Origin: Eledone cirrhosa
Taxonomy: Eukaryota
NCBI GenBank assembly: GCA_964016885.1
Contig: OZ024742.1
Location: 256,060,001 to 256,124,000, forward strand
Length of the DNA: 64,000 nt
Direction: 5' to 3'
Of the stretch, positions 13,574 through 30,107 are shown piece by piece. How positions within the stretch are numbered: the stretch's first letter is position 1; every line of letters starts with the position of its first letter. The position numbers and the translations under genes were made by a program. The notes beneath the pieces were generated by a model, which had not been told where the DNA came from, did no database searches, and was given only the letters and a program-made list of their open reading frames with translations.

Positions 13574-16500
13574 ATTAGAAATTGGAATAAATGCTCTGAA
13601 ATAGCGATATATATGTGAATATAGACATAGAATATTCGAAAATATTCTGTATGTTTATAATAAACATTTTGAAGACCTAATCGCTATAGAATAGAATACG
13701 TCACGTATTACAATTAGATTCTCGATAAAAGCAAGGGAAGTAATCTACGCGTTTCATTCTTGTTAGAAATCATCAGGACTACATATCCAGTGCTTTTATC
13801 GAGAATGACACAGCTAGAGACTTATAGAATACTTAGCTGTGTACAGGAACTGGTTTGAAAGAGCGGTTGCCGGTCCGGCAGAAATTAGAAATTGGAATAA
13901 ATGCTCTGAAATAGCGATATATATGTGAATATAGACATAGAATATTCGAAAATATTCTGTATGTTTATAATAAACATTTTGAAGACCTAATCGCTATAGA
14001 ATAGAATACGTCACGTATTACAATTAGATTCTCGATAAAAGCAAGGGAAGTAATCTACGCGTTTCATTCTTGTTAGAAATCATCAGGACTACATATCCAG
14101 TGCTTTTATCGAGAATGACACAGCTAGAGACTTATAGAATACTTAGCTGTGTACAGGAACTGGTTTGAAAGAGCGGTTGCCGGTCCGGCAGAAATTAGAA
14201 ATTGGAATAAATGCTCTGAAATAGCGATATATATGTGAATATAGACATAGAATATTCGAAAATATTCTGTATGTTTATAATAAACATTTTGAAGACCTAA
14301 TCGCTATAGAATAGAATACGTCACGTATTACAATTAGATTCTCGATAAAAGCAAGGGAAGTAATCTACGCGTTTCATTCTTGTTAGAAATCATCAGGACT
14401 ACATATCCAGTGCTTTTATCGAGAATGACACAGCTAGAGACTTATAGAATACTTAGCTGTGTACAGGAACTGGTTTGAAAGAGCGGTTGCCGGTCCGGCA
14501 GAAATTAGAAATTGGAATAAATGCTCTGAAATAGCGATATATATGTGAATATAGACATAGAATATTCGAAAATATTCTGTATGTTTATAATAAACATTTT
14601 GAAGACCTAATCGCTATAGAATAGAATACGTCACGTATTACAATTAGATTCTCGATAAAAGCAAGGGAAGTAATCTACGCGTTTCATTCTTGTTAGAAAT
14701 CATCAGGACTACATATCCAGTGCTTTTATCGAGAATGACACAGCTAGAGACTTATAGAATACTTAGCTGTGTACAGGAACTGGTTTGAAAGAGCGGTTGC
14801 CGGTCCGGCAGAAATTAGAAATTGGAATAAATGCTCTGAAATAGCGATATATATGTGAATATAGACATAGAATATTCGAAAATATTCTGTATGTTTATAA
14901 TAAACATTTTGAAGACCTAATCGCTATAGAATAGAATACGTCACGTATTACAATTAGATTCTCGATAAAAGCAAGGGAAGTAATCTACGCGTTTCATTCT
15001 TGTTAGAAATCATCAGGACTACATATCCAGTGCTTTTATCGAGAATGACACAGCTAGAGACTTATAGAATACTTAGCTGTGTACAGGAACTGGTTTGAAA
15101 GAGCGGTTGCCGGTCCGGCAGAAATTAGAAATTGGAATAAATGCTCTGAAATAGCGATATATATGTGAATATAGACATAGAATATTCGAAAATATTCTGT
15201 ATGTTTATAATAAACATTTTGAAGACCTAATCGCTATAGAATAGAATACGTCACGTATTACAATTAGATTCTCGATAAAAGCAAGGGAAGTAATCTACGC
15301 GTTTCATTCTTGTTAGAAATCATCAGGACTACATATCCAGTGCTTTTATCGAGAATGACACAGCTAGAGACTTATAGAATACTTAGCTGTGTACAGGAAC
15401 TGGTTTGAAAGAGCGGTTGCCGGTCCGGCAGAAATTAGAAATTGGAATAAATGCTCTGAAATAGCGATATATATGTGAATATAGACATAGAATATTCGAA
15501 AATATTCTGTATGTTTATAATAAACATTTTGAAGACCTAATCGCTATAGAATAGAATACGTCACGTATTACAATTAGATTCTCGATAAAAGCAAGGGAAG
15601 TAATCTACGCGTTTCATTCTTGTTAGAAATCATCAGGACTACATATCCAGTGCTTTTATCGAGAATGACACAGCTAGAGACTTATAGAATACTTAGCTGT
15701 GTACAGGAACTGGTTTGAAAGAGCGGTTGCCGGTCCGGCAGAAATTAGAAATTGGAATAAATGCTCTGAAATAGCGATATATATGTGAATATAGACATAG
15801 AATATTCGAAAATATTCTGTATGTTTATAATAAACATTTTGAAGACCTAATCGCTATAGAATAGAATACGTCACGTATTACAATTAGATTCTCGATAAAA
15901 GCAAGGGAAGTAATCTACGCGTTTCATTCTTGTTAGAAATCATCAGGACTACATATCCAGTGCTTTTATCGAGAATGACACAGCTAGAGACTTATAGAAT
16001 ACTTAGCTGTGTACAGGAACTGGTTTGAAAGAGCGGTTGCCGGTCCGGCAGAAATTAGAAATTGGAATAAATGCTCTGAAATAGCGATATATATGTGAAT
16101 ATAGACATAGAATATTCGAAAATATTCTGTATGTTTATAATAAACATTTTGAAGACCTAATCGCTATAGAATAGAATACGTCACGTATTACAATTAGATT
16201 CTCGATAAAAGCAAGGGAAGTAATCTACGCGTTTCATTCTTGTTAGAAATCATCAGGACTACATATCCAGTGCTTTTATCGAGAATGACACAGCTAGAGA
16301 CTTATAGAATACTTAGCTGTGTACAGGAACTGGTTTGAAAGAGCGGTTGCCGGTCCGGAGAAATTAGAAATTGGAATAAATGCTCTGAAATAGCGATATA
16401 TATGTGAATATAGACATAGAATATTCGAAAATATTCTGTATGTTTATAATAAACATTTTGAAGACCTAATCGCTATAGAATAGAATACGTCACGTATTAC

Positions 16501-28553: not shown

Positions 28554-30107
28554 ATATTCACATATATATCGCTATTTCAGAGCATTTATTCCAATTTCTA
28601 ATTTCTGCCGGACCGGCAACCGCTCTTTCAAACCAGTTCCTGTACACAGCTAAGTATTCTATAAGTCTCTAGCTGTGTCATTCTCGATAAAAGCACTGGA
28701 TATGTAGTCCTGATGAGTTCTAACGAGAATGAAACGCGTAGATTACTTCCCTTGCTTTTATCGAGAATCTAATTGTAATACGTGACGTATTCTATTCTAT
28801 AGCGATTAGGTCTTCAAAATGTTTATTATAAACATACAGAATATTTTCGAATATTCTATGTCTATATTCACATATATATCGCTATTTCAGAGCATTTATT
28901 CCAATTTCTAATTTCTGCCGGACCGGCAACCGCTCTTTCAAACCAGTTCCTGTACACAGCTAAGTATTCTATAAGTCTCTAGCTGTGTCATTCTCGATAA
29001 AAGCACTGGATATGTAGTCCTGATGAGTTCTAACGAGAATGAACCGCGTAGATTACTTCCCTTGCTTTTATCGAGAATCTAATTGTAATACGTGACGTAT
29101 TCTATTCTATAGCGATTAGGTCTTCAAAATGTTTATTATAAACATACAGAATATTTTCGAATATTCTATGTCTATATTCACATATATATCGCTATTTCAG
29201 AGCATTTATTCCAATTTCTAATTTCTGCCGGACCGGCAACCGCTCTTTCAAACCAGTTCCTGTACACAGCTAAGTATTCTATAAGTCTCTAGCTGTGTCA
29301 TTCTCGATAAAAGCACTGGATATGTAGTCCTGATGAGTTCTAACGAGAATGAAACGCGTAGATTACTTCCCTTGCTTTTATCGAGAATCTAATTGTAATA
29401 CGTGACGTATTCTATTCTATAGCGATTAGGTCTTCAAAATGTTTATTATAAACATACAGAATATTTTCGAATATTCTATGTCTATATTCACATATATATC
29501 GCTATTTCAGAGCATTTATTCCAATTTCTAATTTCTGCCGGACCGGCAACCGCTCTTTCAAACCAGTTCCTGTACACAGCTAAGTATTCTATAAGTCTCT
29601 AGCTGTGTCATTCTCGATAAAAGCACTGGATATGTAGTCCTGATGAGTTCTAACGAGAATGAAACGCGTAGATTACTTCCCTTGCTTTTATCGAGAATCT
29701 AATTGTAATACGTGACGTATTCTATTCTATAGCGATTAGGTCTTCAAAATGTTTATTATAAACATACAGAATATTTTCGAATATTCTATGTCTATATTCA
29801 CATATATATCGCTATTTCAGAGCATTTATTCCAATTTCTAATTTCTGCCGGACCGGCAACCGCTCTTTCAAACCAGTTCCTGTACACAGCTAAGTATTCT
29901 ATAAGTCTCTAGCTGTGTCATTCTCGATAAAAGCACTGGATATGTAGTCCTGATGAGTTCTAACGAGAATGAAACGCGTAGATTACTTCCCTTGCTTTTA
30001 TCGAGAATCTAATTGTAATACGTGACGTATTCTATTCTATAGCGATTAGGTCTTCAAAATGTTTATTATAAACATACAGAATATTTTCGAATATTCTATG
30101 TCTATAT
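28554..30107 (+). repeat. Retrozyme-like array B2: 5.0 monomers inverted relative to B1, 5 hammerheads on +
   Basis: The junction gtgaatat-agac-atattcac (28542-28561) is a fold-back with a 4-nt loop. HHR at 28704-28746 reads CTGATGA-g-ttct(aacg)agaa-t-GAAA. Confidence 0.92.

Follow-up and report, generated by a model that had tools for sequence, protein, structure and literature searches.

Metazoan non-LTR (long terminal repeat) retrozymes are described as tandem, non-coding units of 150–450 bp with a low GC content, each of which carries a type I hammerhead ribozyme, and as being flanked by a duplication of more than 4 bp (PMC7229834; 10.64898/2026.07.22.740005). They have been presented as circular RNAs (Cervera and de la Pena 2020, PMC7229834), and a preprint by Li, Clavereau and Pollet (2026, 10.64898/2026.07.22.740005) considers them derivatives of Penelope-like elements (PLEs) by similarity to the pseudo-long terminal repeat (pLTR) and suggests local amplification. 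Insertions of endonuclease-bearing PLEs are reported to contain an inverted 5′-truncated copy and a tail of 30–40 bp at one end only, to occupy (TA)n targets, and to show more-than-unit tandems and duplications of about 8–12 bp, with non-autonomous multicopy derivatives in Chlamys (PMC8557442; PMC3846280). A circular template was proposed for the more-than-unit copies (Cervera 2014, PMC4209133). Here we describe two inverted arrays of a 310-bp retrozyme in a 64,000-nt stretch of the 3.0-Gb assembly of Eledone cirrhosa (GCA_964016885.1, contig OZ024742.1, positions 256,060,001–256,124,000), in the following called the window. Comparison with further copies in the genome revealed that two-armed arrays with readable ends terminate once at each of two fixed sites, a rule obeyed by protein-coding PLEs of the same genome.

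PMC8557442 leaves open by what mechanism PLEs form tandem and inverted insertions with a one-sided tail, and the movement of animal retrozymes "remains to be elucidated" according to 10.64898/2026.07.22.740005. A biochemical reference point is PAc, a Poseidon PLE from Anolis. During target-primed reverse transcription in vitro, two internal starts of reverse transcription downstream of the hammerhead bound the tail (Frangieh et al. 2024, PMC11167929). Both strands of an AT-rich target were nicked and extended, and a dimer was predicted (PMC11167929).

Fixed and paired ends of the retrozyme arrays

The tandemly repeated unit of 310 bp lies within the size range of non-LTR retrozymes, shares their GC content of less than 50% (about 0.34) and folds more stably than shuffled sequences (z −3.95). 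The type I hammerhead motif was matched 49 times in the approximately 51 units of both window arrays and consists of stem I (GUAGUC/GAUUAC), CUGAUGA, stem II, GAAA, a palindromic CGCG as minimal helix III, and UA. Where fixed changes recur in the hammerhead, they preserve the pairing of stem I or affect variable positions. An Rfam scan of the unit returned no family at the gathering score, and the longest stop-to-stop frame has 59 aa, i.e. there is no open reading frame (ORF) in the unit for reverse transcriptase (RT) and GIY-YIG endonuclease. The associated target-site duplication of 12 bp agrees with the more than 4 bp reported for retrozymes. By these sequence features, the unit is a young non-coding non-LTR retrozyme with predicted self-cleavage and a predicted circular RNA. 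Genome-wide counts were taken as exact pattern matches, reverse-strand counts being multiply counted. An internal 30-mer of the unit gave 16,487 matches, and by doubling we estimate some 2,000 insertions.

Numbering the unit from the predicted hammerhead cut and expressing ends as distances from it placed one array end at site A (+157 to +172) and one at site B (+125 to +139), with modal ends at +165 and at +130, the latter ambiguous to +139. The array sample comprised five sets. Thirty-one arrays were chosen by internal motifs and are unselected for their ends. Both ends can be read in 24 two-armed arrays, a further two-armed array has one of its ends in a gap, another array enters a gap and five have a single arm. 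Further two-armed arrays were 16 chosen on one end only, 22 chosen as A/B pairs, which provide no test of pairing, and the two of the window. All 64 two-armed arrays with both ends readable consist of a minus-strand arm followed by a plus-strand arm and possess one A and one B end. This includes 40 of 40 arrays not chosen for end pairing (24 motif-chosen and 16 chosen on one end); under independent choice of site, the chance of such an outcome is 2 to the power −40. Among the motif-chosen arrays, 25/31 are two-armed, all of them minus-then-plus, and 5/31 single-armed; 11 further single-armed arrays were met in the end-selected sets. All 39 scored 3′ ends from 23 motif-chosen arrays fell into the two site intervals, which together cover 42 of the 310 positions. 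Loci retrieved for comparison carry L-numbers. One array leaves its retrieved stretch after 30.6 units, the B end of L035 was taken from a BLAST block only, L031 has an additional internal switch, and the A end of L127 abuts a gap. One truncated duplicate each of L113 and L128 was dropped, as were L127 from the length and duplication tests and L031 from the two-block tests.

At least eight alternating A/T positions within 14 nt adjoin 31 of the 39 ends, as compared to 6.9% of positions in the window from 30200 to 64000. Site A followed by TA was found 833 times and site B followed by TA 1154 times on the forward strand, whereas the hammerhead cut followed by TA had no forward match genome-wide. 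Inner (5′) ends are scattered over the whole unit, and none of 92 lies 6 nt or less from the hammerhead cut, where a uniform distribution would put about 3.6. A scan of duplication lengths from 8 to 18 bp over the 18 loci with informative flanks identified a 12-bp duplication, in which the sequence beginning with the AU of site A is repeated just outside site B, in 13 of them, and zero or one locus at any other length. Two of the remaining loci fit 12 bp in another register and three misfit. From these registers it follows that site A would need only 0–2 nt of primer pairing and that site B would use up to 8. The length scan replaced a free-boundary scan, which is uninformative in pure (TA)n, and a cross-locus control, which was weak as all loci had been chosen for identical flanks.

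Of 46 junctions between arms, 21 were set aside for inserts or variants close by; among the 25 clean ones, 16 share microhomology of at least 2 nt (18% expected, p 6e-7). Counted over all 46, the figure is 16/46 (p 0.006). One junction (L115, 1999–2270) has caught 272 nt of unrelated sequence between the arms. Fixed variants were compared in 36 arrays after 10 of 46 with fewer than 250 shared positions had been left out. They are common to both arms in 32/36 arrays, as opposed to 130 of 1260 cross-array pairs, in a sample containing 17 variant sets. An arm made by fold-back of the first cDNA is limited in length by that first arm, and this limit is broken, whichever order is assumed, in 6/45 retrozyme and 7/17 PLE insertions; two priming events are thus required in these 13.

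(TA)n tracts of great length, interrupted and with periodic units, occur on both sides of insertions (window 5895–12453; flanks of L031, L033, L037, L039, L114 and L125), and insertions frequently sit inside TA tails that earlier PLE-type insertions left (L040, L050, L113, L314). PLE activity may help to expand (TA)n tracts.

The window arrays and related repeats

Both arrays of the window follow the genome-wide rule (Table 1). A preliminary description of this DNA had reported minus-then-plus arrays at 13574..30107, and they are present as described, with the hammerhead-bearing strand facing outward in both arms of each. The strand switch of array 1 (19748–19749) shares 2 nt (AA) and has one extra T, and that of array 2 (28554–28556) is a 3-nt overlap, ATA. 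Unit copies in both arrays are 98.6–100% identical. Relative to array 1, every unit in both arms of array 2 carries 287T>G and 295A>G, a variant also encountered at five other loci on five other contigs. Since these two substitutions run throughout array 2, the arrays are independent insertions. The proposal of two separate insertions is thereby confirmed, each having its own exact 12-bp duplication. The left ends, which had been taken to fall at the same monomer position, are close and not identical (+170 versus +168), and the right ends, placed about 130 nt from the hammerhead cut, are near that value, at exactly +129 and +125. Overlooked at that stage were the 12-bp duplications and the fact that left and right ends represent two different sites approximately 40 nt apart.

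Table 1. Positions of retrozyme arrays, RNA elements and a PLE fragment in the window
Feature	Positions	Strand	Remarks
Array 1, left 12-bp target-site duplication ATATATATACAT	13564–13575	+	identical to 25669–25680
Array 1, left arm, 19.9 retrozyme units	13576–19749	−	outer 3′ end at site A, +170
Array 1, right arm, 19.1 units	19748–25668	+	outer 3′ end at site B, +129
Array 1, right 12-bp duplication copy ATATATATACAT	25669–25680	+	
Interrupted (TA)n microsatellite separating both insertions	25681–26322		
Array 2, left 12-bp duplication ATACATATATAT	26323–26334	+	identical to 30106–30117
Array 2, left arm, 7.2 units, 287G/295G variant	26335–28556	−	outer end at site A, +168
Array 2, right arm, 5.1 units, 287G/295G variant	28554–30105	+	outer end at site B, +125
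Array 2, right 12-bp duplication copy ATACATATATAT	30106–30117	+	
Example of type I hammerhead motif	19923–19965	+	predicted cut after 19959; read from sequence
Example of site B region, UAUUCAC-AUAUAUAU	20395–20408	+	(TA)n primer can pair over several bases
Example of predicted RNA element around site A	20418–20465	+	site A at 20434; prediction
PLE fragment, candidate autonomous partner	120–1283		minus arm 120–304, plus arm 303–1283

A direct duplication of about 630 bp, seen by eye, begins just right of array 2 with copies at 30150 and 30780 (window 30150–31315). A different 461-bp tandem repeat with a hammerhead motif occupies window positions 43769–45670 and ends at CTATTCCAAC beside (TA)n, closely resembling site A of the 310-bp unit, and L110 is flanked by an inverted copy of the family. 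A further type of end that bears a hammerhead terminates at two points some 70 nt from each other, one on each side; it was seen at L133 (1190–1400), L145, L111 and L278, and at L278 it runs on into an RT-like frame.

Array-wide fixed variants of the 310-bp unit are often A>G on the RNA strand (positions 2, 20, 259, 260, 276 and 295), which might fit adenosine editing of the RNA template. Most words of the unit are contained in 20 sequencing runs under 17 organism codes from 16 studies. Over 19690–20050, runs X1, X3 and X8, of unrecorded kind, each gave one self-closing contig of 340 nt, identical to the array 1 unit, at a depth of 10–15. Such contigs could equally stem from carry-over of a plentiful RNA, from one tandem locus or from genuine spread among species.

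Penelope-like elements and the partner question

The plus arm of the PLE fragment in the window comprises a GIY-YIG end and a pLTR that terminates at its own site B in (TA)n. The family to which it belongs has a unit of 3133 bp with an ORF for RT and GIY-YIG, and it is large and young, the 150 best of 26,771 candidates having 95–100% protein identity; homologues share 25–56% identity and nearly all lack a name. In 17/17 inverted insertions, which had been chosen only for opposed GIY-YIG matches, the ends are of the A+B type: one end lies at −12 and the other at +28 to +30 from the ATG, in (TA)n. Older copies chosen on the long end had the short end opposite in 5/6 cases, three of them with an exact 12-bp duplication. 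PLE arms reach approximately 2.7 units, and their lengths are correlated in this selected set (rho 0.64, p 0.006). Measured from a putative hammerhead-like motif with the variant core CCGAAGA, recognized by eye, the PLE ends are at +124 and +164, compared with +125 to +139 and +165 in the retrozyme.

Retrozyme and PLE may have a similar setting of site A, which is predicted to lie 12 nt into a single strand of 21–23 nt that runs from a closing stem to a 5-bp GCC hairpin. In the retrozyme, the predicted element comprises the closing stem AGAGC/GCUCU, 22–23 unpaired nucleotides with site A 12 nt in, and the hairpin GCCGG/CCGGC. A descriptor of this fold, written post hoc, passes only retrozyme positions 162–167 of 310 and PLE positions 25–30 and 2282 of 3133, and 1 of 1000 shuffles of each. 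It also passes 5/12 folded contexts of an older sister retrozyme family, four of which are truncated or diverged, and the 461-bp retrozyme fits the fold loosely. None of 30 GIY-YIG loci had a pLTR homologous to the retrozyme, and the sequence homology to the pLTR of the 3133-bp PLE that a pLTR-derived retrozyme should show was not significant.

A second PLE family of 4.15 kb (4147-bp period; L264–L266) combines a long and a short end in 7/7 cases, with duplications of 12–13 bp. A small inverted insertion in (TA)n at window positions 11190–11640, one arm of which is longer by about 40 nt, represents the pLTR end of this family. At L326 (9109–9478), an insertion end contains about 4.6 copies of an 80-nt PLE piece that reaches from site B (−15) to just beyond the predicted closing stem (+66), as if the RT had jumped repeatedly over the base of the site A fold, a non-circular route to multimers. 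In sum, a PLE is the likely partner of the retrozyme, and the balance tips slightly towards the 3.13-kb family in this role.

Probable twin priming, its rivals and known systems

Very probably, the arrays are made by a PLE enzyme through twin priming at two fixed sites. Array transcripts would self-cleave at the hammerhead and be ligated to circles of 310 nt. A PLE protein, probably a dimer, would bind the fold around site A and place staggered nicks 12 nt apart, corresponding to the observed duplication, to generate two 3′ overhangs. One overhang would prime cDNA synthesis at site A with 0–2 nt of pairing, and the other would anneal to the AU patch at site B some 36–40 nt upstream, the two positions at which arrays end. 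Both RTs may then pass the position of the hammerhead cut and continue for one to about 30 units before the cDNA 3′ ends are joined via microhomology of 1–5 nt or short templated inserts and filled in to yield a head-to-head array. Abortion of one side would produce a single 5′-truncated arm, the form of 5/31 unselected arrays, and some arms may be altered afterwards by copying within the array. Taken as a whole, the explanation that the arrays are independent insertions which borrow a PLE protein and are primed from both strands at A and B of one template appears rather probable to us. That a circular template is the main source of multimers is probable to a similar degree. Tentatively, and with considerable doubt, we extend this to programmed twin priming in PLEs, in which an asymmetric dimer would act on one circle, both RTs would roll around it and retrozymes would mimic the shape and spacing of the start signal rather than its sequence.

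The preliminary description had suggested that both strands of a nicked (TA)n target prime on AU-rich patches of a circular template and roll around it, and had advised tabulating ends, orientations and flanks at other arrays. This tabulation revealed fixed ends and an invariable minus-then-plus order and bore out the (TA)n bias. Priming from both strands is well supported by the outward 3′ ends, the 12-bp duplication, the variants shared between arms, the microhomology and the 13 insertions incompatible with fold-back. As to the patches, only site B pairs with (TA)n over several bases, and not any patch is used: there is always one A and one B, which equal the ends of the PLE "tail", and site A requires 0–2 nt. 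The resemblance to Penelope turned out to be more than a likeness, as protein-coding PLEs of the same genome obey the same rule. Rolling around a circle is plausible, yet private variants in non-adjacent units of five arrays indicate some local copying.

These variants belong to a number of observations that weigh against the explanation favoured here or parts of it. Private variants recur in units 5 and 12 of L114, 5 and 10 of L109, and 2 and 6 as well as 8 and 9 of L115; a linked private pair is present three times at uneven spacing in L295 and nowhere else; and L136 displays a step change, with a variant fixed in one arm and partial in the other. A monomer circle alone cannot produce these patterns, so part of the copying takes place inside arrays or starts from mixed templates. 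A dimer circle, proposed from a two-unit alternation in L292, was discarded when the full array L295 gave spacings of 3 and 2 units. Arm lengths of the retrozyme correlate only weakly (rho 0.25, p 0.10). The cleavage-site base is changed in all units of both arms of L294, and hammerhead cleavage was unnecessary for insertion by PAc in vitro (PMC11167929). Expression, cleavage and RNA circles are predicted from DNA. In the sister family (1,340 matches; 27 loci inspected), only 12 of the 18 loci with two arms show a clean A+B pair; of the others, one combines B with B and five possess an end outside both sites. Concerning the partner, sequence similarity between retrozyme and PLE is not significant, 65/300 shuffles scoring as high. 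With z values of −0.9 and −1.6, the site A fold is a weak one; its descriptor, composed with both examples in view, fails at the ends of two other PLE families. As the second PLE family also generates about 12 bp, the length of the duplication does not identify the partner and was abandoned as a test for it.

The most probable of the competing scenarios holds that twin priming yields a short inverted insert, or copies a linear multimer, and that long arms result from later tandem amplification without any circle. The private variants repeated within arms of five arrays, the local model for retrozyme arrays in the preprint (10.64898/2026.07.22.740005) and the finding that PAc used mainly unprocessed RNA as its in vitro substrate (PMC11167929) all speak for it. 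We nevertheless regard it as unlikely. Most arrays are uniform in both arms, with 37 singletons per 375 units, and in the window arrays no singleton is mirrored at equal distance in both arms. Both arms usually hold several units, PLE arms exceed one unit as well, and the arms of the older sister family mostly measure less than 1.6 units, the opposite of growth with age. The lack of inner ends at the hammerhead cut also argues against it.

Other rivals concern the priming events themselves. Two separate RNAs, one per target strand, would spare two RTs a collision on one 310-nt template and could account for the variant of L136; for L1, such dual priming was called indistinguishable from twin priming (PMC2837659). 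Two free RNAs offer no reason for strict A+B pairing, and with 17 variant sets in the pool the arms of one array share their set far more often than the 10% of random pairs, which makes dual priming improbable, even if a pair of RNAs transcribed from a single dominant source locus in the cell would still fit. Slightly less credible is a single priming event after which the cDNA primes itself or folds back to make the inverted arm, as PMC3846280 proposes for the inverted repeats of Penelope. The near-palindromic junctions of array 2, L034, L109 and L129 and the junctions within the unit's own inverted repeat (L036, L047, L288) would suit it, and arm lengths are compatible in 39/45 retrozyme and 10/17 PLE insertions. 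The lengths in the remainder are impossible, so that fold-back is largely refuted for the PLE, and both the spread of inner ends over the unit and the foreign bases in the L115 junction are at odds with it. An artefact of assembly or amplification, of the sort suspected at L127 and L128, probably one insertion assembled twice beside a gap, deserves next to no credence: exact 12-bp duplications, two fixed ends, an unvarying minus-then-plus order, non-palindromic junctions and array-specific variants contradict it, and PLEs here and in PMC8557442 have the same layout.

Twin priming from one template thus remains the explanation that we favour. The retrozyme family offers about 2,000 young, near-identical natural copies whose ends can be read, together with a constant duplication of 12 bp and variants that mark the template, and it makes the question directly testable: when the 310-nt RNA is combined with an intact 860-aa PLE protein of this genome, such as that encoded at L180, paired A+B products are predicted on a single target molecule. 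The data indicate that one retrotransposition event can create satellite-like arrays as long as about 12 kb. If true, programmed twin priming would account at once for the inverted copy, the tail at one end only, tandem pLTRs and the origin of retrozyme satellite arrays.

Compared with described retrozymes (PMC7229834; 10.64898/2026.07.22.740005), the present family agrees in unit size, hammerhead, low GC content, duplication and proposed dependence on PLEs, whereas inverted arrays, fixed ends or a duplication length do not figure in the available text of these sources. The connection to PLEs differs in kind: in the preprint it is similarity of pLTR sequence, and here it is insertion signature and geometry without detectable sequence similarity. 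Inverted copies, the one-sided tail and (TA)n targets are known for PLEs, while strict pairing, a fixed duplication and the link to retrozymes were not encountered in the literature as far as available. Likewise, we found no report of twin priming for PLEs or of inverted retrozyme arrays, which earlier PLE papers (2005–2006) and supplements may hold.

The PLE-type layout is found in the retrozyme: an inverted truncated copy in 25/31 arrays, a tail of 30–40 bp at one end only in the 64 A+B arrays, and the (TA)n bias. For PLEs, the inverted copy and one-sided tail are said to occur "often" (PMC8557442, PMC3846280), whereas pairing is near-obligate here and both arms contain many units. The explanations offered in these sources are resolution by the endonuclease or self-priming on an antisense template, and the arm lengths observed here argue against self-priming. 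Like PAc, the retrozyme would have two start sites that bound the tail downstream of the hammerhead, both strands of an AT-rich target would be used, and primer–template homology at site A is small; unlike here, the PAc sites were neither paired on one target molecule nor tied to inversions, and site B of the retrozyme pairs with its target (PMC11167929).

With L1 twin priming the arrays share priming of one RNA by both target strands, inverted arms within a duplication and microhomology at the junction (PMC2837659). They differ in that no poly(A) priming takes place, the second primer site is fixed instead of arbitrary, and the arms overlap and repeat the sequence many times without internal deletion. 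Twin priming in L1 was reportedly first proposed by Ostertag and Kazazian. It is a minority outcome there, whereas in the present family two-armed arrays are the main product among unselected insertions.

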